Shown: positions 1,867 through 24,428, numbered from the stretch's first letter. The stretch: DNA of 55,881 bases from a bacterium (GCA_037140955.1 JBAXDL010000006.1:1-55881); one strand, 5' to 3'. The notes: generated by a model from the sequence alone, not told the origin. Made by a program: numbers and translations.

Positions 1867-1887
1867 TTATTTTCATTGTGGATGTCT

Positions 1888-2394: not shown

Positions 2395-2485
2395 ATATTT
2401 ATATTTAAATTATCGACCAATACGATCGATATTTTTCCTTAATTTTGAATTTACACTTTATATAAATATTATATGATAATTCTCA

Positions 2486-3061: not shown

Positions 3062-3067
3062 TGATGT

Positions 3068-5686
3068 TTATTTTAGTGTTTGCAAATGCTTCTTTAATTC
3101 GGATAATTCTAATTGTTTTTTTGCAAGCGTTTCTTTTTGTTGTTCAATAATTTGCGCTGGTGCATTGGAAACAAAATCTTGATTGTTGAGTCTTGAGGAT
3201 AATCCAAGAACAAATTTTTCAATGTTTTCAATTTCTTTTGTTATTTTTTCAATTTCTTTATCCTTGTCGATTGCTCCCGAAAGGTTTATTTCAAGATTTA
3301 TTGTTCCAATTGCTCTTTTGATTGAATTTTCTGTTTCTGTTTGTTTTTTATTGTATTGAATTTTTTCCACGCCAGTTTTTAATCGTTTGATGATTTCTTC
3401 TTGAAATGGTGATTGGAGCATTTGGATGGTTTCTTCTTGCTCGCAATTTATTGTTATGCTTATTTTTTTGCCAATTTCAATTTTATTTTCAGTGCGTACA
3501 TTTCTAATGATAGTGATGATGTCTTGAATTATTTCAAAATTACTTTCCTTTGTCTTGATAAGCTCTTTTGGCCAAGCCGAAATCATCAACAATTTTTCTT
3601 GTCCTGACAATTCCCAAATATGCTCAGTAATAAAGGGCATGAATGGATGCCAAAGTCGAAGAAGTTGATCAAGAACATAGCCAAGTACTGCTTGATTTTT
3701 TTCAATTTTATTTATCTCTAGATACCAATCAGCAAAATCATTCCAGGTAAAAGCCTTTAATATGTCAGCAGCCATGGCAATTTGCTTGTCTTCAATAAGT
3801 TCGGTAGTAGTCTTAATTGTTTCGTTTAGTTTCTTGATAATCCAATGATCTGCTGGCGTGATGATGTTTTCTTTGGAAATATTTTCAAGTAATTTAAAAT
3901 TTTCTTGCGATAGGCAATACTTGGAAATGTTCCAAAGCTTGTTGGCAAAGTTCCTGAAGGTTTCAATTTTTTCTTCATATAATCTCGAATCTTGTCCCGG
4001 GGCGCTGTCCATGATGAGACTCATGCGCAAGGCATCGGCTCCGAATTTATCAATCATAACAAGAGGATCGATTCCGTTGCCTTTGGATTTTGAGAATTTT
4101 TGTCCTTCTTTGTCCAGGCCAAGTCCAGTGAAAAACAAATTCTTGAAAGGAGTTTTTCCTGTTTTGTAAAATCCCATCATGATCATGCGCGCTGCCCAAA
4201 AAAACAAAAGATCTCTTCCCATAATCATCATGTCTGTGGGATAAAAATTTTCAAAATCATCCTTGTGCGCTTTTAATGTGCTATAAGGCCATTGATTGGA
4301 GGTAAACCATGTGTCGAAAGTATTTTCATCTTGCAATAATTTTTCACCCTGACAATGAGGGCAAGCGGAAGGTTTTTCAATTGAAACAATATATTTTTCT
4401 TGTCCGCAATCAGGGCAATACCATACAGGGAATTGTGGTCCCCACCAAATTTGGCGACTAATACACCAGTCACGCATGTTATCAAACCAGTCAATAAGGA
4501 TTTTTTTGAAGTTGTTGGGAAAAATTTCAACTTCACCATTTCCAATGGCTTCGATAGCCTTTTTCTTCAGTGAAAAATTTTTAGCATCAACATTAATAAA
4601 CCATTGACTCGAGGTTAGTGGTTCAATGGTTGTTTTGCATCGCTCGCAAATAGAAACACTGTGTTGTAATTCTTCTATTTTTTCCAGCAGTCCTAGTTTT
4701 TCAAGATCTGAAATTATTTGTTCTCTGGCTGCTTGCACGCCAAGTCCGGCATATTTTCCACCAAGCTCAGTGATGATGGCCTTTTCATCGATAATTTGAA
4801 TTTCAGCTAGATTATGATCTTTGCCAATTTGCCAATCAAGGGGATCATGTGCTGGTGTAATTTTCACTGCTCCTGTTCCAAAAGTAAGATCAATTCGCTC
4901 GTCTGAAATAATTGGAATGATAGTATTTTGCAAGGGAAGTGTGGTATTTTTTCCAACTAATTTGGTATAGCGTTCATCTCTTGGATTAACAGCTACTGCT
5001 GTGTCACCGAGCATTGTCTCTGGTCTGGTAGTTGCTACGGTTATAAATTCATTTGAATTTTCGATTGGATATTTGATGAAATATAATTTTCCAGCAGAAT
5101 CTTTGTGCAAAACTTCAACATCGGAAAGTGCGGTTGAGCATCGCGGACACCAATTGATAATCCTTTTGCCTTTGTATATCAATCCATCATTATGCATTGT
5201 GACAAAAGTTTCCAGGGCAGTTTTGAGAACATCAGGGTCTAGGGTAAATTTTTCACGTGACCAATCAGCTGAGATTCCAATCTTTTTTTCTTGGCTTCGC
5301 ATGTAATTTGCTCGATCAAGACAAAAGGCATAAGTTTTTTTGTAAAATTCTTCGCGTCCAAGTTCTTGTCTGGAAATTCCAAATTCAGCTTGCAATTTTT
5401 TTTCAAAAACAACTTGAGTTTGAATTCCAGCATGATCTTTGCCTGGAAGCAGTAATGTTTTTTTGCCATTCATGCGGCCATATCGTCCAAAAATATCCAT
5501 GACAGTATATCCGCTGGCATGGCCTATGTGCAATTCTCCATTGGCATTTGGTGGTGGCAAGACATTGCAATGCGTGCCTTTGGTGTTTTCTAAATTGTCA
5601 GGATTAAAAAAACCACTTTCTTCCCATCGCGCGTAAATTCCATCTTCAACTTTTTGTGGCTCGTATATTTTTGGTAATTCTTTCAT
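3068..5686 (-). CDS. valS: Valine--tRNA ligase
   Basis: 872 aa. HIGH-type motif PPPNANGELHIGHA, KMSKS-type motif KFSKSKGN, a Zn-binding CPRC/CERC editing-domain region, and a C-terminal coiled coil. Confidence 0.95.
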   Translation of the reverse strand: MKELPKIYEPQKVEDGIYARWEESGFFNPDNLENTKGTHCNVLPPPNANGELHIGHASGYTVMDIFGRYGRMNGKKTLLLPGKDHAGIQTQVVFEKKLQAEFGISRQELGREEFYKKTYAFCLDRANYMRSQEKKIGISADWSREKFTLDPDVLKTALETFVTMHNDGLIYKGKRIINWCPRCSTALSDVEVLHKDSAGKLYFIKYPIENSNEFITVATTRPETMLGDTAVAVNPRDERYTKLVGKNTTLPLQNTIIPIISDERIDLTFGTGAVKITPAHDPLDWQIGKDHNLAEIQIIDEKAIITELGGKYAGLGVQAAREQIISDLEKLGLLEKIEELQHSVSICERCKTTIEPLTSSQWFINVDAKNFSLKKKAIEAIGNGEVEIFPNNFKKILIDWFDNMRDWCISRQIWWGPQFPVWYCPDCGQEKYIVSIEKPSACPHCQGEKLLQDENTFDTWFTSNQWPYSTLKAHKDDFENFYPTDMMIMGRDLLFFWAARMIMMGFYKTGKTPFKNLFFTGLGLDKEGQKFSKSKGNGIDPLVMIDKFGADALRMSLIMDSAPGQDSRLYEEKIETFRNFANKLWNISKYCLSQENFKLLENISKENIITPADHWIIKKLNETIKTTTELIEDKQIAMAADILKAFTWNDFADWYLEINKIEKNQAVLGYVLDQLLRLWHPFMPFITEHIWELSGQEKLLMISAWPKELIKTKESNFEIIQDIITIIRNVRTENKIEIGKKISITINCEQEETIQMLQSPFQEEIIKRLKTGVEKIQYNKKQTETENSIKRAIGTINLEINLSGAIDKDKEIEKITKEIENIEKFVLGLSSRLNNQDFVSNAPAQIIEQQKETLAKKQLELSELKKHLQTLK

Positions 5687-5813
5687 GTAATTTTGTTAGT
5701 ATTATAGAGAAAAATAGTCTCACATCGCTAAATTTAAATAAATACAAAAAGCTTTCTTTTCATACTTATCTTATCAGTATAGGGGATATTTTTCAAGAAA
5801 AAGCTCCTATGGT

Positions 5814-6947
5814 CTAGTTCATCTTTAAATTCGCATTTGCTTGAAGCATTTTCCATCCAAGCAAAGCTTCTTTTTTTTGTTTGGCTGTCATTTTCTCCCA
5901 GCGAAATGCTGCTGCTGCTCCGATCATGGTAGCATTGTCACCGGTTAGTGATGTGTCAGGTATTTTGTATGATGTATTAGGTATGGATTTCTGGATGGCT
6001 TCGCCAAGTTGTTTTCGAAGTTCAGTGTTGGCACTAACCCCACCAGCCAATAGTATTGTTTTTGGATTAAACTGCTCTGCCGCTTTTAGCGTTTTGGCAA
6101 TAAGCACTTCAACGCATGCTTGTTGAAATTCATGACAAATTTCTGCAATATATTCTTTGTTTTTCAAAAGTTCGGGATGTTTTTTCGTTTCATATAGGAC
6201 AGCAGTCTTTAGGCCAGAAAAGGAGAAATTAAAATTTTTCTTATGCAACATTGGGCGAGGGAATTTAATGTTATATTTTGTATCTTGTATTGCTTTTGAC
6301 TTTTGACTTTTGACTTGCGAAGCACGAAGTGCAACGGCCGGCCCTCCCGGGTATCCAATTCCTAAAATTCTAGCAACTTTGTCAAAAGCTTCACCAACGG
6401 CATCATCCAAAGTTTGTCCAACAATTTCATATTGCAAATGATTTTTCATAAGCACAAGTTGTGTGTGACCGCCAGAAACTACCAGCGCTAAAATTGGAAA
6501 CATTATTTTGCATTTTTTTCTTTGAATCTGCGTTGAATTTTGAATTTTGAATTTTGAATTTTCGTCAACGAAGTTGGCATAAATGTGTCCTTCAATGTGA
6601 TGAATTCCAATAAGTGGTTTTTCCCAGAGATAGGAAAGTGTCTTGGCATAATTAACACCAACCAGTAGTGCAGGAATCAGGCCTGGTCCACTTGTAACAG
6701 CAATAAAGTCTATTTGATCAATTGAAACTTTTGCTTCGTCTAGTGCGAGTTTTATGAGTTTCGGAAAGTTTTTTAGATGCTCTCTGGCTGCTAGATTTGG
6801 AACAACACCGCCCCACTTGGCATGCAGTTTTATTTGCGAGGAAACTTTGCTTGTAAGGATGTTTAATTTTGATTCCTTACAAGACAAAATAGAAATCGCG
6901 GTGTCATCGCAGGATGTTTCAATTGATAGGATTATTTTATTTGACAT
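5814..6947 (-). CDS. tsaD: tRNA N6-adenosine threonylcarbamoyltransferase TsaD (Kae1/Gcp family)
   Basis: 377 aa. Motifs ILSIETSCDDTA, HHIEGH, VVSGGHTQL, DDAVGEAFDKVARILGIGYPGGP and GGVSAN. Carries two repeat-encoded loop insertions (see repeats). Confidence 0.93.
   Translation of the reverse strand: MSNKIILSIETSCDDTAISILSCKESKLNILTSKVSSQIKLHAKWGGVVPNLAAREHLKNFPKLIKLALDEAKVSIDQIDFIAVTSGPGLIPALLVGVNYAKTLSYLWEKPLIGIHHIEGHIYANFVDENSKFKIQNSTQIQRKKCKIMFPILALVVSGGHTQLVLMKNHLQYEIVGQTLDDAVGEAFDKVARILGIGYPGGPAVALRASQVKSQKSKAIQDTKYNIKFPRPMLHKKNFNFSFSGLKTAVLYETKKHPELLKNKEYIAEICHEFQQACVEVLIAKTLKAAEQFNPKTILLAGGVSANTELRKQLGEAIQKSIPNTSYKIPDTSLTGDNATMIGAAAAFRWEKMTAKQKKEALLGWKMLQANANLKMN
6294..6314. repeat. 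Perfect heptamer tandem repeat TTTTGAC x3 inside tsaD
   Basis: Read directly. Encodes the SQKSKA-type insertion (ASQVKSQKSKAIQD) on the minus strand. Confidence 0.95.
6534..6561. repeat. Perfect heptamer tandem repeat TGAATTT x4 inside tsaD
   Basis: Read directly. The minus strand reads GAAAATTCAAAATTCAAAATTCAAAATTCA, encoding ENSKFKIQNS between the HHIEGH and SGGHT motifs. Confidence 0.95.
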
Positions 6948-9879: not shown

Positions 9880-11061
9880 ATGAATATTGCAATTTTTACC
9901 AATAACTATTTGCCAAACCCTTATGGTGTGGCAGCTTCAATTGAAAGTTTTCGCAAGGAATTTGAAAAAAGGGGGCACACCGTCTATATTTTTGCGCCAA
10001 GAGACAATGGATATTTCTCAGGTGACGAAGGTATTTCTCCAGGCAGAATTTTTTTCTATCCAGCGATTAATTTTAAATTCAAGGGGATTAATTTTCCCTT
10101 GGTTTTTCCATATTCCTACCGAATAAGTAGGATTTTGGAAAAAATGGAAATTGACGTCGTGCATTCTCAGCATCCAAATTTGTTGGGGTGGGTTGCTGCA
10201 CATTGGGCAAAGAAAAAAAATGTCCCATTGGTTTTCACTTGGCACACTTTGTATGATCAATATGCGCATTTTGCTCCAGCATTTGTTCCGAGAAAGTTTG
10301 CTCTTTGGTGGACCTTGAAGAATGCGGTTTCTTTTGCCAACAAAGCTTCTCAGGTGGTTGTGCCAACTTTCTCAGCAAAGAAAATTATTGAAAAATGGGG
10401 AGTGAAAAACAAAAATATTGTGACAATTCCAACTGGAATTTTGAAGCAAGATTTTTCAAAAATAGACAGGCAGTTGGCCAGAGGAGAACATGCAATAAAT
10501 GAGGATCGAATTGTGCTGGGATTGATTTGTCGAATAACTAAAGAAAAAAACGTGCTGTTTTTGGCAAAAATAGTGGCGCTGCTGCTACAAAAAAATGAAA
10601 ATTTAGTGTTTGTTTTGGCTGGAGATGGCGATGAAATTGCCACAGTGAAGAGGATATTTGCTCAAGAAAACATTGGAGACAGGTTCAAATATTTGGGAGT
10701 TGTTGGTGGAAAAGAAAAGAATGATTTTTTTGCAATGTCTGATATTTTTGTCTATGCCTCAAAATCAGAAACTCAAGGAATGGTTTTGATTGAGGCAATG
10801 CAAGCAGGGCTTCCGATTGTCGCAATTAATGCTACTGGCACTTGCGATGTTGTGGAAGATGGCAACACAGGATTCTTGGTCGATGAGAATGAAGAAGTCT
10901 TCATGGCTGCCGTTTTAAAATTAATTGAGAACAAAAATTTAAGACAAGAATTTGGAGAAAAATCCAAGATGGTCTTTGCAAAAAAATATACTAGCAGTGC
11001 ATGTGCTTATAAGATGTTGGAGATGTATCAAAAAAATATAAAGAAAGAAAAAATGTCTTAA
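9880..11061 (+). CDS. Glycosyltransferase family 4 (GT-B fold)
   Basis: 393 aa. C-terminal EX7E-type motif SETQGMVLIEAMQAGLPIVA...DGNTGFLV. Confidence 0.85.
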   Translation: MNIAIFTNNYLPNPYGVAASIESFRKEFEKRGHTVYIFAPRDNGYFSGDEGISPGRIFFYPAINFKFKGINFPLVFPYSYRISRILEKMEIDVVHSQHPNLLGWVAAHWAKKKNVPLVFTWHTLYDQYAHFAPAFVPRKFALWWTLKNAVSFANKASQVVVPTFSAKKIIEKWGVKNKNIVTIPTGILKQDFSKIDRQLARGEHAINEDRIVLGLICRITKEKNVLFLAKIVALLLQKNENLVFVLAGDGDEIATVKRIFAQENIGDRFKYLGVVGGKEKNDFFAMSDIFVYASKSETQGMVLIEAMQAGLPIVAINATGTCDVVEDGNTGFLVDENEEVFMAAVLKLIENKNLRQEFGEKSKMVFAKKYTSSACAYKMLEMYQKNIKKEKMS

Positions 11062-11109
11062 GGTTGTACTAATATTTGTGTTGTTTTTAATTATTTTATT
11101 TGAAAAAAT

Positions 11110-11715
11110 ATGCATAATGAATTTTTGCAGGATGTGGAGGAGTTTTATGATGGACCAGTGGTTGGAAGAAGGCTTCCAGAAATTGAATTAGAAGCCTTTC
11201 ATAAGGAGGAGGTAAAAAAGATTAAGTTTTCTGATTATGCTGGAAAGTGGGTTGTGTTGGTTTTTTATCCAGCTGATTTTACTTTCATTTGTCCAACGGA
11301 GCTTGCAGCTGTTGGTGCGATGTATGGTGATTTTCAAAAAGCAGGAGCTGAGGTTTTTGGCGTTAGCACGGACACTGTTTTTGCGCACAAGGCTTGGCAT
11401 GACACTTCTGCCATGATTAAGACCATAGATTTTCCAATGCTAGCTGATCCAACTGGAAAATTGTGCAAGGCTATGGGAACATATCTTTCTGAGCAAGGAT
11501 TGTCACTACGCGCCACTGTGATTGCTGATCCAGATGGAACAATAAAGGCTGTTGATATTCATGACAATAGCATTGGCAGGAGCAGTGAGGAAATTTTGCG
11601 AAAATTGCAGGCTGCAATTTTTGTCAGAGAACACAAAACGGAGGTTTGCCCAGTGAATTGGAAACCAGGAGCAAAAACATTGAAACCAGGTTTGGATTTG
11701 GTAGGAAAATTGTAA
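11110..11715 (+). CDS. Typical 2-Cys peroxiredoxin (AhpC/TSA family)
   Basis: Peroxidatic motif DFTFICPTE and resolving Cys in TEVCPVNW. 201 aa. Confidence 0.9.
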   Translation: MHNEFLQDVEEFYDGPVVGRRLPEIELEAFHKEEVKKIKFSDYAGKWVVLVFYPADFTFICPTELAAVGAMYGDFQKAGAEVFGVSTDTVFAHKAWHDTSAMIKTIDFPMLADPTGKLCKAMGTYLSEQGLSLRATVIADPDGTIKAVDIHDNSIGRSSEEILRKLQAAIFVREHKTEVCPVNWKPGAKTLKPGLDLVGKL

Positions 11716-11760
11716 TTATAATTTTTAAAATAGTTTAAGTTTGTATTTTTCAAAGCCTTA

Positions 11761-11786
11761 TGACTTTGGACTTTATGACTTTTGAC
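11761..11786. repeat. GACTTT-type heptamer repeats (TGACTTT GGACTTT ATGACTTT TGAC) in the SOD leader
   Basis: Read directly. Same heptamer family as the tsaD-internal TTTTGAC x3. Confidence 0.85.
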
Positions 11787-11796
11787 TAATATTAAT

Positions 11797-12384
11797 ATGT
11801 ACGAAGCAAAAAAATACGAAAATTTGTTGGGAATCGAAGGTCTTTCTGATGAGCTCCTGAAGAATCATTTCACATTGTATGAAGGTTATGTTGCAAATGT
11901 GAACAAGGTTACTGATTTGATTTCAAAACTTGCAACTGAGGACAAATTGGCAACACCTGAATTTGCAGAGGTAACACGTCGTTTTGGCTGGGAGTTTAAT
12001 GGAATGAGGTTGCATGAACTATACTTTGAAAACATGATGAAGGGCGGTAGCGTCCTGGAAAAGGACAGCGCTCTTTTGCAGAAGATTGTTGGAGATTTTG
12101 GTTCATTTGAAAATTGGGAAAAGCATTTCAAGGCCACTGGAACAATGCGTGGAATTGGCTGGGTTGTTCTATATCTGGACACAGAAAGTGGAAAACTGTT
12201 TAATATGTGGATAAATGAGCATGACGGTGGACATCTTGCTGGTGCTGTTCCGATTTTGGTGATGGACGTTTTTGAACATGCCTACATGGTGCAATATGGA
12301 CTAAAAAAAGCTGACTATATCGAAGCATTCATGAAAAATATTTGTTGGCACGTTGCTGGTGGACGCTACAACTTGGCGCAATAA
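11797..12384 (+). CDS. Fe/Mn superoxide dismutase family protein
   Basis: NGMRLHELYF and DVFEHAYMVQY (metal-ligand D..H) motifs. The N-terminal helix is NHFTLYEGYV instead of HHxKHHxxYV. ATG at 11797; the ORF is open from TTG 11782. Confidence 0.8.
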   Translation: MYEAKKYENLLGIEGLSDELLKNHFTLYEGYVANVNKVTDLISKLATEDKLATPEFAEVTRRFGWEFNGMRLHELYFENMMKGGSVLEKDSALLQKIVGDFGSFENWEKHFKATGTMRGIGWVVLYLDTESGKLFNMWINEHDGGHLAGAVPILVMDVFEHAYMVQYGLKKADYIEAFMKNICWHVAGGRYNLAQ

Positions 12385-13999: not shown

Positions 14000-14386
14000 C
14001 TAAACTTTAATTTTAACCCACAAAATTTCAATAACCGCTAAGACAGAAGCTAGTGCCATAGAAACTAATGAAATTGTCATCATAACAGGATAAAATTCAA
14101 CAAATCCAAATAAAACAATTCTAGGACCATCACCGCCATCGGGGAAAAGCAAGTTTGATACTATAAATAAAAGGCAGGTGATAAAAACAATCGTTGCCTT
14201 AGTTGTAGTAAATTTATCTTTAAATTTATCTAAAAAATAATTATTAGCAAAATAAATTAATACATAATAGACGACGATAATAGGAGAAAAAAATATTAAT
14301 ATCCAGCCAAAACTAGCAACCCGAGAAATTATAGCAATAATCATCGATACAATTAAAAAATAATAACTAATATTATATGCATTCAT
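14000..14386 (-). CDS. Hypothetical membrane protein (4 TM)
   Basis: 128-aa hydrophobic ORF with no recognisable family. Confidence 0.5.
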   Translation of the reverse strand: MNAYNISYYFLIVSMIIAIISRVASFGWILIFFSPIIVVYYVLIYFANNYFLDKFKDKFTTTKATIVFITCLLFIVSNLLFPDGGDGPRIVLFGFVEFYPVMMTISLVSMALASVLAVIEILWVKIKV

Positions 14387-14720
14387 AATTATAAATACTT
14401 TTTTACTTTATCAATTTACACTAATAGTATACCACAGTTCGATTGTACACTATTGATAGCAATGGAATTACGCGTCGTTTTTTAATGAAAACTCCTTGCC
14501 CGCAGCAGAGCTGAATGTTCGTATTCCTCATATTTATCTACGCTCGCTCATCTCACTTTCGTTCGATGCTCGCTTCTGAAGGAATGGGGAATCCTCCTCA
14601 CCCAAACTTTTTCGCGAGTACGCAGAAAAAGTTTTCCTTCGGAGCCTGGGTTTTCAAAAAAGCAAAATCGTTTGCTTTTTTGAAATACCCTTCGATTCCC
14701 ACCATATTCAAACCATAAAG

Positions 14721-14757
14721 AAAAATCCCCTGAGTCAAAAACTCAGGGGATTTTTCT
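14721..14757. terminator. Bidirectional intrinsic terminator
   Basis: AAAAATCCCCTGAGT-CAAAA-ACTCAGGGGATTTTT, a perfect 15-bp stem. Confidence 0.8.
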
Positions 14758-14896
14758 TTATGGAGAGCGACACATCTCCACCCCGAACTATTATTAAAGG
14801 AAAAACACAATCTTACTTTTATCTGCTATAATATAGATACAAAAATTCGCCGTATAGGCGTTAGTTATAAACAAATAGCATAAAGCCATTACTATT

Positions 14897-15250
14897 ATGT
14901 CAAAAACCCCGTCAAAGCCAAATAATGAGTCCGAGGAGATCAATGCGATGTTTGATAAGCTCGAAAAGGGAGATTATTCAGGTGTGGAAAATTTCATGTC
15001 AAAAGCCATGCCAAAATTAGCTAAAGTTTTCAATGATTTTGATCCTAAGCTAAATTCTTTCACTGGCTATATTAAAAAGGATGAAAATAAAGAAGTTTCA
15101 AGTGATAATATTGGCCTTCTTTCATATACCACAACCGATCCAATTGTAAACATTGGCGCTAACAAACGACCTTTGCAAGTAGGCTTCTCGTCAGTAGAGC
15201 AAGACAACGACCAACTTTTACACTTTCTTTTCAATAAATCCAAGCGTTAA
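14897..15250 (+). CDS. Hypothetical protein (117 aa, soluble, acidic N-terminus)
   Basis: ORF followed by the terminator at 15280-15304. No family recognised. Confidence 0.5.
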   Translation: MSKTPSKPNNESEEINAMFDKLEKGDYSGVENFMSKAMPKLAKVFNDFDPKLNSFTGYIKKDENKEVSSDNIGLLSYTTTDPIVNIGANKRPLQVGFSSVEQDNDQLLHFLFNKSKR

Positions 15251-15279
15251 GAAGATCAATTATAAATCATGCTTATCTG

Positions 15280-15304
15280 CCAGCACCGAAAATGCTGGTT
15301 TTTT
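15280..15304 (+). terminator. Intrinsic terminator
   Basis: CCAGCA-CCGAAAA-TGCTGG followed by TTTTTT. Confidence 0.75.
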
Positions 15305-15344
15305 CAAACTTGTGTTTTTCCCATATTTATAGTAAATTTTAGAA

Positions 15345-15518
15345 GCTATCAAATTCAAATAGATTCTAAAATAGCTCTACAAAGCTATCCTAATCGTGTT
15401 CTGTGTTGGCAACCCGATGCAAACGATTAGGATACGTTAGTATCTTTTTGAGTTTGATAGCCTTCGGGCTGCCAACTTAGAAGGCACTTTCCCGAAGACT
15501 TATTTATTAAGTCTTTTT
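15345..15518 (+). ncRNA. Candidate structured RNA / cis-regulatory leader (unclassified)
   Basis: 15-bp helix 15345-15359/15447-15461 (one G-U), extended by 4 bp. Perfect 12-bp helix 15386-15397/15423-15434. The loop GTTGGCAACCC (15405-15415) is complementary to 15466-15476 in 10 of 11 positions. A competing helix is CTTCGGG/CCCGAAG (15462-15468/15491-15497). A terminator-like hairpin GACTTA-TTTAT-TAAGTC plus TTTTT ends 4 nt before the ATG at 15522. Confidence 0.5.
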
Positions 15519-15521
15519 ATT

Positions 15522-15803
15522 ATGCCACAAATACTTTTCGCACTACTTGTAAGTCTTTTGTTTACTTGGGGTCTTGGTTTATTGTTGCCAATTCTTTTGC
15601 GCTTTGTGATTGTGAAAAAACAGATTGGACAAATTTGGGCATGGCTAGTCATATTCATGGTTTTTGGTTTTCAAACCATAGGAGCATTACTGTTGGGAAG
15701 TAGAAGCAAAGGACATCCAGCATTTGCCTTGGTGGCTTATGTTGGTTATTTGATAATGCGCAGAGAAACAAACACTAAAGAAAATAATCAAATAGCAAAA
15801 TAA
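15522..15803 (+). CDS. Hypothetical small membrane protein (3 TM, 93 aa)
   Basis: Hydrophobic ORF separated by 2 nt from the next ORF (stop 15803, next ATG 15806). Confidence 0.55.
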   Translation: MPQILFALLVSLLFTWGLGLLLPILLRFVIVKKQIGQIWAWLVIFMVFGFQTIGALLLGSRSKGHPAFALVAYVGYLIMRRETNTKENNQIAK

Positions 15804-15805
15804 GT

Positions 15806-16204
15806 ATGGCTCATATTTTTGGCGTTATTGTCGTTTATGCGTTATTTGCTTGGGCATATATATCTTTCATTATCACTGTAATTATATTAGTCACAAACTT
15901 TGAAGGCGAAGATGTTTTTGGGGTGCCAGTTAATTTCTTTCTTCTGCCAGCTTTTTGGTGCTTAGTATTTTTTTTAATGCCAGGATTTGAGAAGGCTTTA
16001 TTTTTTATTCCCGCAGATTGGATGAGTGAAGGCGATGGGGGTTGGTATTCTTCAAGGGGAACTTATGCTGGCATTCTTGCTTTTTTCGCAAGTGTTGGCA
16101 TTGCTTTATTTTTTGTGAAATATGCTGAAATGAGAAATAAGCTAGAACGAACTAAAAATGAATTAGAGGCAAAAAAGAAAAAACGAAATAAAATAAATTA
16201 CTAA
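15806..16204 (+). CDS. Hypothetical membrane protein (132 aa) with a basic coiled C-terminal tail
   Basis: 3-4 TM segments, then KLERTKNELEAKKKKRNK. Confidence 0.55.
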   Translation: MAHIFGVIVVYALFAWAYISFIITVIILVTNFEGEDVFGVPVNFFLLPAFWCLVFFLMPGFEKALFFIPADWMSEGDGGWYSSRGTYAGILAFFASVGIALFFVKYAEMRNKLERTKNELEAKKKKRNKINY

Positions 16205-16213
16205 AAAAGATAC

Positions 16214-16444
16214 ATGGCTACATTTCAAATTACAACATGCCCGACTTGCAGACAAGAGTTCGAAGAAGAAATAGATCCTCTTCCATGTTTAGTTCTTTAT
16301 GGTGACGAAGAAAAGAAAGAATGCCCACTCTGCCATGCTTTCTTTGATGAGTATGATAAGGCATTGGAATTTAGATTCAGGCGGGTGCCAAATCCTAAAA
16401 AGCTAAGCAGATTTGAAAGAATAAAAAAGTGGTTCAAGATATAA
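16214..16444 (+). CDS. Small zinc-ribbon protein (76 aa)
   Basis: CPTC...CPLC motif pair. Third gene of a tightly packed trio. Confidence 0.5.
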   Translation: MATFQITTCPTCRQEFEEEIDPLPCLVLYGDEEKKECPLCHAFFDEYDKALEFRFRRVPNPKKLSRFERIKKWFKI

Positions 16445-16452
16445 TCAACTTC

Positions 16453-16486
16453 AAAAAAGGATTGCCCTGAAGAGCAATCCTTTTTT
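16453..16486. terminator. Bidirectional terminator
   Basis: AAAAAAGGATTGC-CCTGAAGA-GCAATCCTTTTTT. Confidence 0.75.
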
Positions 16487-16501
16487 GTTTGGCATGACTT
16501 T

Positions 16502-18262
16502 TTATTTTATTACTTTGTTTTGAGAAAGTGAAAATGTTATTGTTTTTTCTTTTTGTTTCACACTATCCCCCCATGGATCGGTAAGTTTGAAGATAACTGT
16601 ACCATTATCCAAGTCACATGTAATTGATTGGTAATTTTTACTTGCTTCGGAATCATATTTTGAAATATCAAAGAGTGGATTATCGAAGTTGTTAGATGCG
16701 AACACAATTCCATCAAATGTACCATCAAATGCTGACGCAGCACATGTGAACACATTTTTTTCATCATCAGTAAATGTAACTTCTCTTGCAGCTCCTTGGG
16801 TAAATACTATTTTCTTTTTTGCAATATCATAAACAGAAGTACCGCCCCATTCCCAAGCGCCAACATTGTATATAACAAAATTACCCCTAGGTGAAAATTT
16901 AACATTGGAAAAAAATCTAACCTCTCCTATGTTCTTATAATCCTTGTCATATTCAGCCACGGCTTGATCAATTATCGTTTCTGATCCATCCTTTTCCAGA
17001 ACAACATAGTTTTTATTGTTTCTTTTTACTGCGCTTACTTTCGTATTACCAAATATGGAAGGCTCGGACAGTATTTCTCTTGATGACATTGTTTCAATTT
17101 TACCACCAACAACATTCATCACCACGTCATATTGAGTTGGATCTGCATTGCTTTCTTGATATTGCACAGAAAATTCGTATTGATTACCAGTAATCTTCTT
17201 AAAATCAGATGGTTTCGCAAAAAAGACATTGCCATACCATTGCTGAAAAGTATCGAAAGATATTTTATTGCTTGCATACATTGCATAAGCATCCTGCAAT
17301 TTTCCAGTTGAAATAAGCCAGTAGTATTTTCTTATTGCAGTTATATTTGAATCTTCACCAGCAATTGTTTCAAAGTCGATACTACTTTTTGCGGAAGGAG
17401 CAAAAGATTGAATACTGCTTACTAATTTGGAAAGTTGATTTTTTTGGTTTTCAATTTCATCTTTTGTTAATGCTTTATCTTGCGCACCACGTCTTTCAGA
17501 ATTGTTATAAAATTCTTCTATCGATGAAATTTTGTTTTTAATTTGAACTATTGCTCCAAAATCTGCTTCAACTAAAACTTGATTGAAATATCCATTAGAA
17601 AGGGTGTGATAGCCAAAATTCTTAAACGCATACGAATAAACGGGCTTGTTTTTATTGTCACCAAAATCAAAGACCTGCTTTTCTTCCGTTAAAATATCCT
17701 TCACACCTTGTTGGCACGTATCAACAATCTCATGAATTGTATCGCCATTTGCATTTGAATAGCCTAATTTATAGTCACAAATATTGCCCGATTTTTTAAG
17801 ATCAGAAACATTATCCATCGGATCACCATAGGGCGATTCTATTCCTGAAAATTTATCATTAAAAACAACTAACTGAATTATATTATTATTTTCAAAGCTA
17901 ATTGAAACATTGTTGTAGTATGCAGTATTTTGTTTTTCAAAATCACTTTCAATGCCTTGCAGATTCGTAATATTTGTAAGAGGTGCAGTATGTGGCTCAC
18001 CCCAAGATGCTGGATAAATAAATTCAATTCCCAAAACATCATGCTTGTACAATTTCCATCCCGCAGGAACTTCTATACTGGGAATTTCCTTGGCTATCTG
18101 CGTTGTCTGATTTTTTAACTCTTGAATTTGATTAGTTGATACCTTTTGATCGGAAGGCTGAAACTTTTTCATAAACATCCAGCCAATAACTCCCACAGTG
18201 ACAGCCACAATTACGATAATAATCGCAATCACAGCAACATTGCCTTTTGTAGTTTTTTTCAT
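16502..18262 (-). CDS. Hypothetical membrane-anchored extracytoplasmic protein (586 aa)
   Basis: N-terminal TM (VAVIAIIIVIVAVTVGVIGWMF), then a large beta-rich ectodomain. No family recognised. Confidence 0.6.
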   Translation of the reverse strand: MKKTTKGNVAVIAIIIVIVAVTVGVIGWMFMKKFQPSDQKVSTNQIQELKNQTTQIAKEIPSIEVPAGWKLYKHDVLGIEFIYPASWGEPHTAPLTNITNLQGIESDFEKQNTAYYNNVSISFENNNIIQLVVFNDKFSGIESPYGDPMDNVSDLKKSGNICDYKLGYSNANGDTIHEIVDTCQQGVKDILTEEKQVFDFGDNKNKPVYSYAFKNFGYHTLSNGYFNQVLVEADFGAIVQIKNKISSIEEFYNNSERRGAQDKALTKDEIENQKNQLSKLVSSIQSFAPSAKSSIDFETIAGEDSNITAIRKYYWLISTGKLQDAYAMYASNKISFDTFQQWYGNVFFAKPSDFKKITGNQYEFSVQYQESNADPTQYDVVMNVVGGKIETMSSREILSEPSIFGNTKVSAVKRNNKNYVVLEKDGSETIIDQAVAEYDKDYKNIGEVRFFSNVKFSPRGNFVIYNVGAWEWGGTSVYDIAKKKIVFTQGAAREVTFTDDEKNVFTCAASAFDGTFDGIVFASNNFDNPLFDISKYDSEASKNYQSITCDLDNGTVIFKLTDPWGDSVKQKEKTITFSLSQNKVIK

Positions 18263-18335
18263 TTTAATTTGTTATTTTTTTATATTGATATTTTACCATT
18301 AAATTTGTCCATTGTCGAAGTGATTTTTAACCATA

Positions 18336-19028
18336 GCAATCCCTTTTTGTTTTTTGCACGTGGGAAGTGGTTATTGGGTCCCCGACCGCAAAAGGGTACC
18401 CATGGGTGTGTATGGCTTTCTGTGCCAGCCCATCAAGGATCTTGAACAATATAACAAGTTAAGAGGCAATCCCTTTTTATGGTGGTAAGTCTGATTTATT
18501 TTGAAGTTTTTTCAGCCAGTAAAGCACTAATTAAAAGCGCAATAACCATCAAGTAGCAAGTACCCCAACTTTACCCCTTATACTCATTGCAACTTTATCC
18601 CTTATACCCACAAATAGTATTCTCTTTTTTATGGTCGGAAGTCGTAATTATTCTGAAGTTTTTTTACCCAGTAAATTACAGGTTGTAATACTAATAATCA
18701 ACAAATCGCAAGTACCTGAACTTAGGCGCTTATTCACCTTGCAACTTCATGGCTTAGCAATCTCTTTTTATGGTGTCATGTTGTATTTATTTTTAGATAT
18801 TTTTTAACTCAAAAAAGACTTTATGTAAGGCATAAATTCTCTTATAAGCAATTATAGGAAATATGGAAACATTACCGCTTATACCCCTTCAAAATATTAT
18901 GCCCTTTGCGGGCGATTTTGGGTAAAGTTGGTTTTATTATTGAGAAATTAGCTTCAAATAAGCCATAATGAGTGAAGCATGGCTAGATGTTTGAAAGATT
19001 GATACAATAACCATACAATTCTTTTTTT
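18336..19028. repeat. Degenerate tandem array, units of about 130-150 bp, anchored by GCAAT(C/T)C(C/T)CTTTTT-ATGG
   Basis: Anchor motif at 18336, 18466 (the identical 13-mer GCAATCCCTTTTT), 18618, 18757 and 19015. Units 18466-18617 and 18618-18756 align over their whole length (for example GAAGTTTTTT(T)..CCAGTAAA, GCAAGTACC, CTTAT.C.C.TTGCAACTT). Confidence 0.7.
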
Positions 19029-19075
19029 ATGCTATCCCTATTCGTACCCCTTGATCTCTAATAAAAACAAACAAA

Positions 19076-20842
19076 TTGAAAGAAGAACAAACAGAATCTG
19101 TGAGGGTTGCACTCTATGTGAGAGTATCAACCGATGATCAGGTTGAAAAATATGGCCCCGAACTACAAAAAGAAGCCTTACTGGGACTAATAAAATCAAA
19201 AGGGACCCTTGCAAATGGGAAGCCTAGATTTGTGCTTGCTGGGGATGAGCATATTTATTTTGAGGAGGGCATCAGCGGAACTATGCCAGTAGATGAAAGA
19301 CCTCAATTTTCAAGATTAAAAGAAAATATACTACTAGCATCAGAAGATCAAAAACCTTTTGACCTCGTGGCTGTTTACAAGATTGATAGGTTTGCACGTA
19401 AGCTGAAAATACTACTAGACATAATAGATTTTTTTGAATTTCATGGAATAAAGTTTATTTCAGCAAATGAAAGCATAGACACTTCAACCCCTTTTGGCAA
19501 AGCCATTCTTGGGATTATTGGCGTTATCGCTGAACTGGAAATAGAAACCACAAAAATGCGAACCCATGATGGTCGTGAGCAAGCAGCAAAAAGAGGTGTT
19601 ATTATGGGAAGCTCCTCTGTTTATGGATATGACAAGGATGAAGAAAAAAGGCACAAAATTCTTGAAGTTGAGGCCAAAATAGTAGAAATGATTTTTGATT
19701 TATTTGTGAATGAAAAAAAGTCTGCTTTCCAAATATCCAAATATCTATCCGAGCTACGAATCCCCACCAAGGGGGCTTCTGCCATAATAAATAAAAAAAG
19801 AAAAGGTCAAATAAAGCAAAAATCCAGTATTTATTTTTGGAAAGAAGGCGCAATTAGGGAAATTTTGCACGATGAAGTTTATATTGGAAATGTTTATTAC
19901 GACAAAGGCGAACGAGGCAAGACATTCCCCAAAGAGCAATGGAAGCTATCCGAGTTCAAATCTCCTGCTATTATCGATAGGCTTACTTTTGAAAAAGCGC
20001 AGAGTATTTTTGAATCATCAAAGCATGAGAATAAACAAACCCGAAGCAAACACACATATCTTTTGAGTGGACTGTTAAAATGTGATGCCTGTTATGATGA
20101 TGAGAAAGATATAACGGGTCGAATTTGCTGGACAGGAGACAGAAGAGAAATCAAAAAAGGAAATGGCAAATTTGCATATTCTTATAAATGCAATCGAAAA
20201 AATCCAGCCAAGCATGAGCATACATGCACCACAATCCCACTGCCAGCTAATGAAATAGAAAACTACATCATGGGTTTCTGCAAGAAACTCATTCAAAACC
20301 CGCTAGCAACATATAAGCATCAAGTCAGGCTCAATTCAACCAAAATAGCCATAAAGCAGCTCAAAAAAAGAGAGGAGGAATTGCTCAACGCCATCAATGG
20401 CTTCGTATTCCAAAAAGAGAGGATCAGGGAACAGCATACGCTCGGACTTCTTTCTACTGAAAAAATGCAAGAACAATTTAGCGACTTGGATACACGAAGA
20501 ATAAAACTTCAAACACAATTTACCGAGGTTCAGAGCCAAATTTCTGAAAACATCCTTTCGGAAAACTATAAAGAAACACTAGAGTTATTTTCCGCTAAAT
20601 ACAAAAAGAATATTCCCAGTGTCTTTGAAAACAGACTTGCTACACACGAACTAATTCACCAACTGATTGAAGAAATCGTGGTTTATTCCCGTCCGATAGA
20701 AAACGCTGATATTATTGCTGGCAAACGAAAAAAGGATCAAAAGATCCCTTTTCGCCTTCATATTAAATTGAAGTTACCACAAGACATTCTTACTGACCTC
20801 ACCGAGAGGTTCGGGGCAGGAAAGTCTCCTTTGAGCGGGTAG
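19076..20842 (+). CDS. Large serine recombinase (resolvase N-domain, recombinase domain, Zn ribbon, coiled coil)
   Basis: VALYVRVSTDDQ catalytic Ser motif, YKIDRFARK, ISANESIDTSTPFGKA. Recombinase domain YGYDKDE...IFDLF. Cys cluster LLKCDACY...YKCNRK...HTCTT. TTG start (or GTG at 19100). The last 9 nt overlap tRNA-Gly. Confidence 0.9.
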   Translation: MKEEQTESVRVALYVRVSTDDQVEKYGPELQKEALLGLIKSKGTLANGKPRFVLAGDEHIYFEEGISGTMPVDERPQFSRLKENILLASEDQKPFDLVAVYKIDRFARKLKILLDIIDFFEFHGIKFISANESIDTSTPFGKAILGIIGVIAELEIETTKMRTHDGREQAAKRGVIMGSSSVYGYDKDEEKRHKILEVEAKIVEMIFDLFVNEKKSAFQISKYLSELRIPTKGASAIINKKRKGQIKQKSSIYFWKEGAIREILHDEVYIGNVYYDKGERGKTFPKEQWKLSEFKSPAIIDRLTFEKAQSIFESSKHENKQTRSKHTYLLSGLLKCDACYDDEKDITGRICWTGDRREIKKGNGKFAYSYKCNRKNPAKHEHTCTTIPLPANEIENYIMGFCKKLIQNPLATYKHQVRLNSTKIAIKQLKKREEELLNAINGFVFQKERIREQHTLGLLSTEKMQEQFSDLDTRRIKLQTQFTEVQSQISENILSENYKETLELFSAKYKKNIPSVFENRLATHELIHQLIEEIVVYSRPIENADIIAGKRKKDQKIPFRLHIKLKLPQDILTDLTERFGAGKSPLSG

Positions 20843-20905
20843 GGGGAATCGAACCCCCCTCCTCAGATTGGAAGTCTGATATAATAACCACTATACGACA
20901 CCCGC
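20834..20905 (-). tRNA. tRNA-Gly (anticodon TCC)
   Basis: Reverse complement: acceptor GCGGGTG/TACCCGC, anticodon stem TCAGA/TCTGA with loop CTTCCAA, T arm GGGGG-TTCGATT-CCCCC, discriminator T. Confidence 0.88.
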
Positions 20906-20909
20906 TTGC

Positions 20910-21578
20910 TTATACTTGTGAAAGAGACTCTTCAATCCAACCCATGATTTTTCTGTGTAAATTCACTCCAAAATCAGGATTTCCATTGCTGTTAATTGTA
21001 ACATGGGCAGTGCCATGCGGCAATTTGAATTTCTTCATTTGCGATTTTTCCAGTCTGCGATCAACTTGCGTTTTGCGAAACTGAACAAGAGGAATATTAA
21101 CCTTTTTGCTCCAATATGTCAAGCTTTCGTGAATATCATTGTCTGGATATAGATGTATTGCTATTGTTATGTTGCTATTTTTGAGTTTGCATATCCTTTT
21201 GAACCACAAAATAGACATCTTTATTATTTGTGGATCTGAGTTTATGATGCGTATTATTTCATATGATTTTGTGCCTTCTCCTAGGTAAAGCCCAAGACCA
21301 AGCATCCAAAGGTCTCTCTTGGAGATTTTTCCTAGTTCTTCTCTAGCAGCTTTTTTGATGCGTGCGATGTCTGAAACCTTTTTGTTGTGCTTTATTTTTC
21401 CTGATTTGAGTGGCCCAGACTTGATGCGCTCCCACACTTTTTTATTTGGTTTGTATGGAATTTCCTTTAACCATGAGCTTAAGGTGCTTTTGCTTACGCC
21501 TAATTTCTCAACAATCATCGAGTAAGAGTCGCCTTTTTTGCGCAATTCGATAGCTTTTATTTTTGTGCTTGTTTTCAT
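20910..21578 (-). CDS. HTH plus LAGLIDADG-like homing-endonuclease-like protein
   Basis: N-terminal HTH (YSMIVEKLGVSKSTLSSWLKE). The central LWMLGLGLYLGEGTK resembles the LAGLIDADG motif (GxxxGDG/EG). The stop codon lies 4 nt upstream of the tRNA-Gly 5' end. Confidence 0.45.
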   Translation of the reverse strand: MKTSTKIKAIELRKKGDSYSMIVEKLGVSKSTLSSWLKEIPYKPNKKVWERIKSGPLKSGKIKHNKKVSDIARIKKAAREELGKISKRDLWMLGLGLYLGEGTKSYEIIRIINSDPQIIKMSILWFKRICKLKNSNITIAIHLYPDNDIHESLTYWSKKVNIPLVQFRKTQVDRRLEKSQMKKFKLPHGTAHVTINSNGNPDFGVNLHRKIMGWIEESLSQV

Positions 21579-21812: not shown

Positions 21813-24428
21813 ATGTCTATTGCTCAAGTAAAGCTGCGCAGTGGTGAGTTGGCACCGTTTGATCGAACAAAAATAGAAAGGGCAATTGAATTGGCCTGTG
21901 AGGCGGTGGGGGAATTGAACAAGGATTTTATTGTAAAAATGGCTGATGATATTATAGCGGAAATCACACTTGGCTGTGGCGATGATGCCAATGTGAACAT
22001 TCCAAGTGTTGAAAAGATTCAGGATATTACAGAAAAACACTTGATGAAAGATGGGCGCTATGAAACCGCCAAGGCTTTCATTTTGTATCGCAACAAGCAA
22101 AGTGAGAAGCGTGATGAGAAAAAAGAAAAACTTTTGGAGCAATTTGAAAAGCACTCCATGAAGGTGATCAAGAGCAATGGAAAAAAGGAACTTTTTGATA
22201 TCAAAAAAATTAAAGCGGTTTTTGAAAGAGCTGTTGATGGCTATCAAGAGACTTGTAAATTTGAGGATTTGCTTGAGGCTTTCAAGAAAAATATCGTTGA
22301 TGAGATCAAAACTTCTGACATCAACAAGTTGTTGGTCAAAACTTGCATTGACTTGGTGACGGTTGAAAATATTTCTTGGCAGGAAGTTGCTGGGCGCATT
22401 GCACTTTTTAATTTGTACAAAGAAGCAATCAGGAACAGAAAAATCAAGCACGAAGATGTGTATTCTCCGCAATCGGTGCTGGCTCTTTTTCATGAATATA
22501 TTAAAAGTGGTTTATATGCAAAGGAATTACGAGAGACTTATACTGATGAAGAAATTTTGTTGGCAGCCAAAAGTATTGATGCCAAGCTTGATTTGAGTTA
22601 TGGATACACCACTGTGCTTTCTTTGCAGAAAAGATATTTGCTAAATCCAAACAAAATTGTCAAAGAACTTCCACAAGAGATGTATTTTTTTGTGGGCTTG
22701 TTTATGGCGATGCCAGAAGCAAAAGAAACTCGTTTGGCAACAGCTATTGAAATGTATCTTGCTTGCGCTGGGCAGAAAATTTCTTTGGCAACTCCATCAC
22801 TCATGAATGCTCGCACAACTTTTCATCAACTTTCTAGCTGTTTTAAATTGAATGTGGATGATGATTTGCGTGCTATTTATCACTCAATTGAAAACATTGC
22901 GCAAATTTCAAAATTTGGTGGCGGTGTGGGTGTGTATCTTGGAAACATTCGTGCGCGCGGTTCTTCAATTCGTGGGGTGATGGGAATGTCTGGCGGTGTT
23001 AATCCTTGGGTAAAGGTGATCAATGACACTGCTATTGCAGTGAATCAACTTGGCTCAAGACTGGGAGCAATTTCAGTGACCCTTGATGTTTGGCATCATG
23101 ACATCTATGATTTCTTGGATTTGCAAACTGAAACAGGAGACATTCGCTCAAAAGCTTTTGACATCTTTCCTGCCATTTCAGTGCCAGATCTTTTCATGAA
23201 AAGATTAGACAAAAATGAGGACATCACCTTGTTTGATCCCTATGAAATTACCAAACTGCATGGCAAATCATTGCAAGACACTTTTGGTGAAGATTTTGAA
23301 AAGTTTTATTTGCTATTAGAAAAAGATGAAAACATTAAAATGAAAAAACAAGTTCCAGCCAAGGAATTGTTCAAGAAGTTTTTAAAGACAGTAGTGGAAA
23401 CTGGCATGCCATATGTGTTTTTCCGCGACACAGTCAATCGCGCCAATCCCAACAAGCATGCGGGAAATATTTATTCTTCGCAGCTTTGCACTGAAATTTG
23501 TCAGAACACTTCAGCTTCAAAATTTGTGGAAGAAACATTGGAAGACGGAAAAATACTTATCAAATATGAGCCAGGTGACACAGTTGTTTGCAATTTGGCT
23601 TCAATTAATGTGGCTAAAGTTAACACCAAAGAAGAGATTGATAAGATTTTGCCAATTGCCATGCGCATGTTGGATAATGTCATCACTTTGAATTATTATC
23701 CAATTCAAGAGGCTAAAAGAACTGCCATGCGTTATCGCTCAGTTGGCTTGGGATATCTTGGTTTGGCAGAATATTTGGCAGTGCAGAAAATTGCCTATGA
23801 CTCACAAGAAGCTCGCAACGTCACTGATGAATTGTTTTCAAAATATGCTTTTGCGACTTATCGCGCTTCAGTTGATTTGGCAAAAGAGCGTGGAAGTTAT
23901 CCATTATATGAAGGAAGTGAATATTCTAAAGGAAAAATTCTTGGCAATGGTGTGGAATGGTTTGAGAAAAATACTAAAGATGGAAAAGACTGGAAAAAGC
24001 TTTTTGCAGACATGAAAGTTTCCGGTGTGCGTTTTGCATACAACACAGCGCCGGCGCCAAACACTTCAACTGCAGGCGTGGTTGGAACAACAGCGGCACT
24101 ACTTCCGATTTATAAGAAGTTTTTTGTGGAAACAAATTTGAGCGCGCCAACTGTGCGCGTGGCACCAAAGCTTAGCAAGGAAAATTTCTGGTATTACAAA
24201 GAATATATCAACATGGACATGAATGAGGTGATTGATATGATGGCAGTTTTGTATAAATGGATTGATCAATCAATTTCTTTTGAATGGATGATTGATCCAT
24301 CACGCGTCAGTCCTGCTCAACTGTATGCTTATTATATGAAGTCATGGTCAAGTGGAATCAAGACTGTGTATTATGTGCGAAGTCTTTCTGGGGAAGTTAA
24401 GGATGATTGTGTGAGTTGTTCTGGATGA
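21813..24428 (+). CDS. nrdA: Class I ribonucleoside-diphosphate reductase alpha subunit with N-terminal ATP-cone
   Basis: 871 aa. ATP-cone VKLRSGELAPFDRTKIERAI, catalytic region NLCTEI-like SQLCTEICQ, C-terminal redox Cys pair CVSCSG. Followed by nrdB. Confidence 0.93.
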   Translation: MSIAQVKLRSGELAPFDRTKIERAIELACEAVGELNKDFIVKMADDIIAEITLGCGDDANVNIPSVEKIQDITEKHLMKDGRYETAKAFILYRNKQSEKRDEKKEKLLEQFEKHSMKVIKSNGKKELFDIKKIKAVFERAVDGYQETCKFEDLLEAFKKNIVDEIKTSDINKLLVKTCIDLVTVENISWQEVAGRIALFNLYKEAIRNRKIKHEDVYSPQSVLALFHEYIKSGLYAKELRETYTDEEILLAAKSIDAKLDLSYGYTTVLSLQKRYLLNPNKIVKELPQEMYFFVGLFMAMPEAKETRLATAIEMYLACAGQKISLATPSLMNARTTFHQLSSCFKLNVDDDLRAIYHSIENIAQISKFGGGVGVYLGNIRARGSSIRGVMGMSGGVNPWVKVINDTAIAVNQLGSRLGAISVTLDVWHHDIYDFLDLQTETGDIRSKAFDIFPAISVPDLFMKRLDKNEDITLFDPYEITKLHGKSLQDTFGEDFEKFYLLLEKDENIKMKKQVPAKELFKKFLKTVVETGMPYVFFRDTVNRANPNKHAGNIYSSQLCTEICQNTSASKFVEETLEDGKILIKYEPGDTVVCNLASINVAKVNTKEEIDKILPIAMRMLDNVITLNYYPIQEAKRTAMRYRSVGLGYLGLAEYLAVQKIAYDSQEARNVTDELFSKYAFATYRASVDLAKERGSYPLYEGSEYSKGKILGNGVEWFEKNTKDGKDWKKLFADMKVSGVRFAYNTAPAPNTSTAGVVGTTAALLPIYKKFFVETNLSAPTVRVAPKLSKENFWYYKEYINMDMNEVIDMMAVLYKWIDQSISFEWMIDPSRVSPAQLYAYYMKSWSSGIKTVYYVRSLSGEVKDDCVSCSG

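Follow-up and report, generated by a model that had tools for sequence, protein, structure and literature searches.

A 6-kb island at the end of a tRNA-Gly gene, very probably integrated there by a large serine recombinase of a family spread across the candidate phyla radiation

The stretch of DNA analysed here (the window; GCA_037140955.1 JBAXDL010000006.1:1-55881, 55,881 nt in full) contains, at positions 14765–20834, a 6.07-kb island that is very probably an integrated element, placed at the 3' end of a tRNA-Gly gene and moved by a large serine recombinase (LSR) of a family that spans the candidate phyla radiation (CPR). The neighbouring nrdA gene displays 80–89% identity to nrdA of Moraniibacteriota metagenome-assembled genomes (MAGs), and on the strength of this match the host, a tiny uncultured bacterium, is assigned to Candidatus Moraniibacteriota (CPR/Patescibacteria). 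An earlier note on this DNA had proposed integration by an LSR at tRNA-Gly; the proposal is supported by an empty site in a relative, by the exact geometry of the left and right attachment (att) sites, attL and attR, and by a survey in which the same geometry recurred in 59 loci. All six open reading frames (ORFs) described in that note were found again at the same coordinates, and the features of the island and its borders are collected in Table 1.

The uninterrupted site, which was sought in close relatives by synteny, was found in locus L055, where the 3' end of tRNA-Gly is followed by a terminator hairpin and then by 146 nt that are 80% identical to window positions 14586–14729. The joined window flanks (...14764 + 20835...) are colinear with L055 and free of gaps across the junction (TTTATGGAGCGGGTAGGGGG versus GTTTTGGAGCGGGTAGGGGG), and the island is therefore delimited as stated above. 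Homology to L055 stops at attL, and in close relatives a tRNA-Gly(tcc) gene stands at the corresponding place without any recombinase. Since the GC-rich structured block at about 14470–14712 and the hairpin at 14713–14763 directly adjoin the empty tRNA-Gly site in L055, where a hairpin occupies the same place but has a different sequence, both are host DNA. Thus the left edge of the island is the crossover GA at 14763–14764 and not position 14390, where it had been put before. The structured or repetitive non-coding DNA that had been ascribed to the island falls into two parts: the left-hand block belongs to the host, while the leader at 15345–15521 and the repeat spacer at 18336–19075 do lie inside. 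A distinct composition was not found when the GC profile was checked (0.31–0.39 inside versus 0.28–0.41 outside), and the idea of a compositional island was dropped, GC being the same as in the flanks.

In the general form of the two junctions, attR reads GTTCGGGG-N16-XX-tRNA and attL reads host-XX-N16-CCCCGAAC, with XX the complement of tRNA positions N73-C74. In the window the crossover corresponds to U73-C74 and the tRNA body is intact. The P arm of attR overlaps the coding end of the recombinase gene, and the B' arm is the antisense acceptor stem plus T arm. Only the dinucleotide GA is necessarily common to attL and attR, with no long target duplication, and no second copy of the tRNA 3' end was detected within the window when up to 3 mismatches were allowed, so that the reported lack of a long tRNA-derived repeat at the left end stands. 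The attP site reconstructed from the two element arms measures 50 bp, GTTCGGGG-N16-GA-N16-CCCCGAAC; its two ends form perfect inverted repeats of 8 bp, in keeping with what is expected of an LSR. The attL motif GA-N16-CCCCGAAC occurs once within the window, compared to 0.02 occurrences expected by chance. The centre of the crossover was anchored on the tRNA acceptor stem, independently of the P motif. Half-site logos placed the motif CGAAC at offset 21–25 in P and P' and at offset 17–21 in B', where it is the T-loop; it thus lies 4 bp nearer the centre in the tRNA arm than in the two attP arms. This inward shift resembles the difference between attB and attP half-sites of A118-type integrases, which is reportedly 5 bp. 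As for the tRNA itself, the empty site encodes the CCA end (…CCCGC-U-CCA), while the integrated form reads ...CCCGC-U-C-AAAGG; because an encoded CCA is also absent from the other five tRNAs of the window, its loss is unlikely to matter.

The recombinase displays a resolvase domain (PF00239, 3.3e-30, residues 11–175) with an RVSTDDQ motif and a catalytic serine, S18, that is nearly invariant across the family, together with a recombinase domain (PF07508, 1.1e-19). The zinc ribbon gives a weak match (PF13408, 0.0075; 17 bits, below the cut-off of 25.3) but its four cysteines C336, C339, C372 and C384 do not vary among 27 family members, so that these three domains, named in the earlier note, are retained. 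The recombinase matches a PHROG integrase family at 8e-94, and its relatives in the PDB, all distant, are the TP901-1 integrase, SPbeta YokA and gamma-delta resolvase. In NCBIfam it is weakly similar to CcrB/CcrC (79–82 bits versus a cut-off of 900) and, with scores so far below the cut-offs, it is not a member of either family. The ORF is full length and has the full LSR architecture, not that of a small invertase. Its last codons, AGC GGG TAG (20834–20842), were confirmed to be the antisense of the tRNA 3' end. No tyrosine recombinase was detected with Pfam among the proteins of the island in the window.

Table 1. Coordinates of the island, its junctions and the adjoining host features in the window
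Feature	Position	Strand	Remarks
Host terminator hairpin, perfect 23-bp arms	14713..14763	.	Inverted repeat I4; 3' of the original tRNA-Gly; B arm of the old attB; outside the island
attL	14739..14788	+	Host B arm 14739-14762, GA 14763-14764, element P' arm 14765-14788 ending CCCCGAAC (14781-14788)
Severed 3' end of recombinase gene	14765..14883	+	In-silico reading across attP; tail ...PELLLKEKHNLTFICYNIDTKIRRIGV...
117-aa partner gene	14897..15250	+	Motif SSxEQDNxxLLHFLF; 108.7 bits versus family hidden Markov model (HMM)
Structured non-coding leader of small-gene operon	15345..15521	+	Inverted repeat I7; homologous leader in L079
93-aa polytopic membrane protein, cargo	15522..15803	+	Not conserved in L079, the only other complete module copy
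132-aa membrane protein with basic coiled C-terminal tail, cargo	15806..16204	+	One homologue, 52%
76-aa zinc-ribbon protein (CxxC...CxxC), cargo, paired with the 132-aa gene	16214..16444	+	Two homologue clusters
Secondary 1.8-kb insertion with 586-aa membrane-anchored envelope protein	16491..18335	-	ORF 16502-18262
ORF-free spacer upstream of recombinase	18336..19075	+	Three 139-152-nt diverged direct repeats; repeat families D1, D2, D4
Large serine recombinase, integrated short form, 588 aa	19076..20842	+	Pfam, PHROG and PDB relatives; last 8-9 nt tRNA-derived
attR	20809..20858	+	P arm 20809-20832 beginning GTTCGGGG (20809-20816), GA 20833-20834, host B' arm 20835-20858
tRNA-Gly(TCC)	20834..20905	-	ARAGORN (20833-20905), Rfam 59.8 bits; intact through C74

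Relatives of the recombinase numbered 573 in the protein collection, and 79 genome loci plus 8 metagenome loci were examined. In 59 of the 62 assessable loci (recombinase of at least 38% identity) the recombinase gene runs up against an antisense tRNA, and the P motif stands precisely 24 nt away from the centre; one of the three exceptions, L104, was assessed at the first of two apparent recombinase copies only. Outgroup recombinases (at most 35% identity; Gracilibacteria, Omnitrophota, Firmicutes) had no tRNA at the recombinase end in 19 cases out of 19. All fetched copies have GTTCGGGG upstream of the tRNA end. The far junction is marked by CCCCGAAC, and an exact attL could be placed in 14 loci (15 including the window), giving island sizes of 3.8–11.4 kb. 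The tRNAs occupied are those for Gly (tcc, gcc, ccc), Ala, Val, Lys, Glu, Leu and Phe, with GA at the centre where the discriminator is U73 (Gly) and GT where it is A73. In a maximum-likelihood tree the window falls in the Gly clade as sister to L001 (support 100/97), a locus from another MAG whose recombinase is 62% identical and also ends inside tRNA-Gly(tcc), while its flanks and cargo are unrelated to those of the window. Elsewhere in the tree the tRNA identity switches between near-identical enzymes, and an identical P arm was observed in L099 (Lys-ttt), L102 (Glu-ttc, 98.8% identical) and L106 (Val-gac, 97.1% identical). The family loci all come from CPR-like MAGs and represent many CPR phyla by label; a few of these labels ("Gammaproteobacteria", "Bdellovibrionales" and "Micavibrio" among them) are probably wrong, given the CPR-like appearance of the genes nearby.

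The delineated sister islands (n = 16) carry restriction-modification, Abi, OLD, toxin-antitoxin and metabolic genes, among them type I and type II restriction-modification, AIPR, AbiTii, AbiV, OLD, PD-Lambda-5, KAP NTPase and Panacea genes as well as dehydrogenases and glyoxalases. Two loci of the family have an unusual arrangement. L104 apparently contains two family recombinases (about 3855–5588 and 10001–11719). In L111, five tandem units spaced 0.7–2.1 kb (328–6470) precede the recombinase and a tRNA-Val, each with an identical terminator hairpin, GT and a P'-arm-like site; the array looks like serial, integron-like accretion of cassettes at one tRNA end.

Integration also shortens the recombinase. 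When read across the reconstructed attP, the protein would be 625 aa long versus 588 aa in the integrated form, and the conserved tail of about 37 residues that is removed now lies stranded at attL. In the window this tail displays the motif KHNLTFICYNIDTKIRRIG with no internal stop, and in 14 family members it is kept well past the att arm, with the consensus PELxxxEKYNLxFxCxNIDKxIxRIG. The stop codon of the tail abuts or overlaps the start of a gene related to the 117-aa gene; in the window the last base of this stop codon is 14883 and the 117-aa gene begins at 14897. Homologues of the 117-aa protein are found in every complete island examined, and the HMM of the partner gene recovered 36 family loci, including the window, in each case on the same strand as the recombinase. 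The usual start of the gene is 115–135 nt past attL; one subfamily has it immediately upstream of the recombinase. Kept in every complete island examined and in 36 loci, the 117-aa gene is part of the element backbone, and its previous listing as cargo has to be withdrawn. From its position, the product is a candidate recombination directionality factor or regulator; its AlphaFold2 (AF2) model is poor (predicted local distance difference test, pLDDT, of 51) and its profile matched no solved structure.

A mechanism can be put forward from the geometry of these sequences. In the free circle the 3' end of the LSR gene would contain the 50-bp attP. The enzyme would pair attP with the end of the tRNA-Gly gene and exchange strands at the dinucleotide complementary to U73-C74; the tRNA body would remain host-derived and intact, the old trailer and terminator would end up 6 kb off, at attL, and the LSR gene would lose its last ~37 conserved codons and end after two antisense-tRNA codons. 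With regard to target recognition, the enzyme may read generic features of tRNA genes, namely the T-loop CGAAC and, via the central dinucleotide, the discriminator, which would explain near-identical enzymes at different tRNAs. Only in the circle could the tail left at attL and the 117-aa gene stand in one operon with the LSR, and they could thereby set or regulate the direction of recombination, a speculative step to which we give rather less than an even chance. In its full form, the model that we tentatively propose, and regard as possible, is that of a large CPR serine-integrase family, absent from the literature searched, whose attP arms would mimic the tRNA T-arm and in which one enzyme would insert after the discriminator of many tRNAs, chosen mainly by the centre (GA with U73, GT with A73), while the long enzyme and its 117-aa partner would share an operon only in the circle, providing a state-dependent switch between integration and excision.

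The island is a real and probably functional member of this tRNA-end serine-integrase family, mobility being suggested by intact parts and by comparative evidence. It had been described as possibly decayed, but it does not look so, since nothing is damaged in the recombinase, in either att site or in the severed tail. Several points weigh against this interpretation. No recombination, circle or empty site of the same strain was seen in the source sample, of which the assembler contigs only were covered. The free attP was not found in IMG/VR or in the metagenome collection: the IMG/VR scan gave one match, in an unrelated high-GC iteron region, and the metagenome scan gave 76 matches with a median GC of 0.64, none of the 76 encoding a recombinase relative. 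The B arm displays no recognisable motif in the half-site logos and is merely T-rich, so that the model does not account for binding at the second attB half-site; the shift of CGAAC is 4 bp, against the 5 bp reported for A118-type integrases; and the role suggested for the 117-aa protein is read from its position only. Finally, all cargo proteins of the window gave zero matches in PADLOC at E ≤ 0.1.

Contig depth in the source sample is 174–179 for the island versus 190 for the flank. Other tRNA-Gly contigs, with a depth of 23–33, are hairpin-flanked empty sites of other strains or species, and a joint 14444->20832 (depth 29.5) considered as a trace of excision was rejected, as it comes from another strain or species, in which the tRNA shows 6 differences. 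The left flank at 14061–14460 is present as two haplotypes (depths 50 and 70, with 18 differing sites over 260 nt), and the island as one only (depth 174).

We consider it unlikely that the island is a dead relic, once integrated by the recombinase and now immobile with drifting genes. Such a relic would account for the lack of an excised or empty form of the same strain, for the foreign 1.8-kb segment inserted into the element and for the fact that the island lies on single contigs with no variant letters listed, while the left flank splits into two haplotype contigs. It fits less well with a full-length recombinase ORF that has the family-invariant residues, with att sites that both match the family consensus exactly and with a severed tail that still encodes its conserved motif without a stop; moreover, contigs are unable to reveal rare excision. 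Large serine integrases are typical of temperate phages and the recombinase matches a PHROG integrase family (8e-94), so that a prophage remnant or phage satellite, as opposed to an autonomous island, has to be weighed as well. This is a quite improbable origin: no other island protein matches PHROG at E ≤ 0.005, the element is only 6 kb long, the 16 delineated family islands have no capsid, terminase or replication genes, and the IMG/VR attP scan gave nothing related. Finally, the overlap and the att sites could be coincidences in a rearrangement hot spot between the 200-aa gene (11782–12384) and nrdA (21813), the recombinase then being an invertase or resolvase. The 201-aa/200-aa genes do abut nrdA in most Moraniibacteriota, the 12.4–21.8 kb stretch is variable in the clade, and a unit of a helix-turn-helix (HTH) gene and tRNA-Gly is found in both orientations; but the recurrence of the exact geometry in 59 loci, which involve many different tRNAs and many phyla, the colinear empty site in L055 and the full LSR architecture, which is not that of a small invertase, make this explanation extremely improbable, and it is already contradicted by the family geometry and the empty site. 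An integrated element of the tRNA-end family remains our preferred reading.

The five non-recombinase proteins proved as unrecognisable as had been noted: none of their matches reached a curated cut-off in Pfam or NCBIfam, or E ≤ 0.005 in PADLOC or PHROGs, and Rfam returned nothing credible in the structured regions of the island. The cargo is centred on a leader-controlled trio of small genes that is very rare. The 132-aa protein has one real homologue (52%) among 1.84 billion representatives, with the same gene order in L079. The zinc-ribbon protein has only two homologue clusters (95% and 71%), both encoded directly after a 132-aa-like gene; the two genes recur on only two or three other metagenome contigs. 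In L079 the pair stands in the same order, with a homologous leader that has conserved blocks upstream of the same genes and with a homologous downstream element, while the first operon gene differs. A role of the trio in defence or exclusion is plausible because sister islands carry defence genes, with no direct match behind it, and our best guess, which we hold to be doubtful, is that the trio is a membrane-acting defence, exclusion or addiction module.

In L235 (86% DNA identity) and in L079 the zinc-ribbon gene is not followed by the segment 16491–18335; since in L235 it runs straight into the repeat spacer, as it does in L079, this segment is a later insertion. The closest relatives of its 586-aa protein (83%, 71%) are found in a core murB-raiA...secA context, and by this comparison the gene is a later-acquired copy of a host-type envelope gene. 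The AF2 model (pLDDT 79) has a transmembrane helix and a beta-rich ectodomain, for which Foldseek detected a weak TolB/DPP4-like propeller likeness (TM 0.17–0.23). Parts of the spacer 18336–19075 are conserved 3' of the zinc-ribbon gene in L235 and L079. Promoter-like sites at 18940–19019 are not above chance, promoter- and terminator-like sites being no commoner than in shuffled sequence. Also 3' of the zinc-ribbon gene, an element GT-GGGAAG...TTGGGTCCCCGACC is conserved between the window (18360–18387), L079 (about 2170–2200) and L235 (about 390–420); elements of this type are loosely P'-arm-like but have an 18-nt instead of a 16-nt spacer and one or two mismatches, and may be a relic junction or a regulatory structure. 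The copy at 18360–18387 (GT-N18-CCCCGACC) was tried as a second, degenerate P'-like site marking a cassette boundary and was dropped for its wrong spacing and one mismatch.

In comparison with known systems, the element shares with the large serine integrases of phages and of integrative and conjugative elements (phiC31, Bxb1, A118/LI, TP901-1, SPbeta SprA) the domain order of resolvase, recombinase and zinc ribbon, short att sites (about 50 bp) whose inverted arms are imperfect, a crossover of 2 bp, the absence of long direct repeats, and a recognition motif nearer the centre in attB than in attP. It differs from them in that the target is the extreme tRNA 3' end (N73-C74) and that one lineage uses several tRNA species, in that attP lies inside the recombinase ORF, from which integration removes a conserved tail, and in the absence of phage genes; identity of the window recombinase to characterised large serine integrases is low. 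SCCmec elements likewise use large serine recombinases (CcrAB/CcrC), which insert a cassette with cargo into the 3' end of a housekeeping gene that is conserved; this gene is however rlmH and not a tRNA gene. With the tRNA islands of tyrosine integrases (Islander-type) the island has in common the tRNA landing site, the integrase gene at the tRNA-proximal junction and the accessory or defence cargo, whereas here the recombinase is of the serine type, neither a displaced piece of the tRNA nor a long repeat is present, and the crossover falls after the acceptor stem rather than inside the gene. In archaeal integrases of the SSV type, attP lies inside the int gene and integration splits that gene, so that free and integrated forms encode different proteins, as here; those enzymes are tyrosine recombinases whose gene is split centrally and inactivated, while here about 37 C-terminal residues are lost and the catalytic and DNA-binding domains are intact. 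Large serine recombinases are found in 27 of 937 Prochlorococcus tycheposons (bioRxiv 10.1101/2020.12.28.424599). Tycheposons are similar as small cargo elements at tRNA genes and differ in being mostly tyrosine-recombinase elements, often with replication modules; the passages of that preprint consulted give no att-site detail for the serine-recombinase ones.

We found no description of a CPR tRNA-end serine-integrase family in the literature searched, relative to which the family is a new variant of serine-integrase elements. The tRNA genes have long been regarded as the territory of tyrosine integrases, and the family contradicts this older literature. Serine integrases are the main tools for the insertion of large DNA, although their landing site has to be put in place beforehand or to be there by luck. 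If the proposed reading of T-arm and discriminator is true, it would give natural landing sites in almost any genome, with an insertion that leaves the tRNA intact, and the family may bring its own direction switch. CPR genomes are, to our knowledge, largely without classical conjugative elements; for CPR biology the family would identify a main vehicle of accessory and defence genes. For the window, element backbone, true cargo and host DNA are cleanly told apart, and a very rare module (leader, membrane proteins and zinc-ribbon protein) is isolated as a defined object.

On the host side of attL, the block 14470–14712 is conserved, non-coding and convergent with tRNA-Gly. It displays compensatory changes between the window and L055 (CTTTTTCGCG/CGCAGAAAAAG versus TTTTCCCGTG/CACAGGGAAAA), and its 3' end has a tRNA T-arm-like motif, CCCTTCGATTCCCACC, where relatives have GGTTCGATTCCCTCCTACC(G)CTA. 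The block, which was recognised by neither ARAGORN nor Rfam, may encode a small RNA not yet described, or it may be an ancient piece of a tRNA in inverted orientation. Further out, the 201-aa and 200-aa genes (window 11110–12384) directly adjoin nrdA in about 40 Moraniibacteriota relatives, while in the clade of the window they and nrdA (21813–24428) are 3–9 kb apart, with tRNA-Gly, the HTH gene and others between them in either orientation. Because the 201-aa/200-aa genes abut nrdA in most Moraniibacteriota, the whole 12.4–21.8 kb stretch is variable in the clade, and the interval is a rearrangement hot spot larger than the island. On the tRNA side, outside the island, a 222-aa HTH protein is encoded at 20910–21578 with its stop 4 nt from the 5' end of tRNA-Gly; this gene and tRNA-Gly are kept as a unit in L007, L049 and L061 (54–79% identity).

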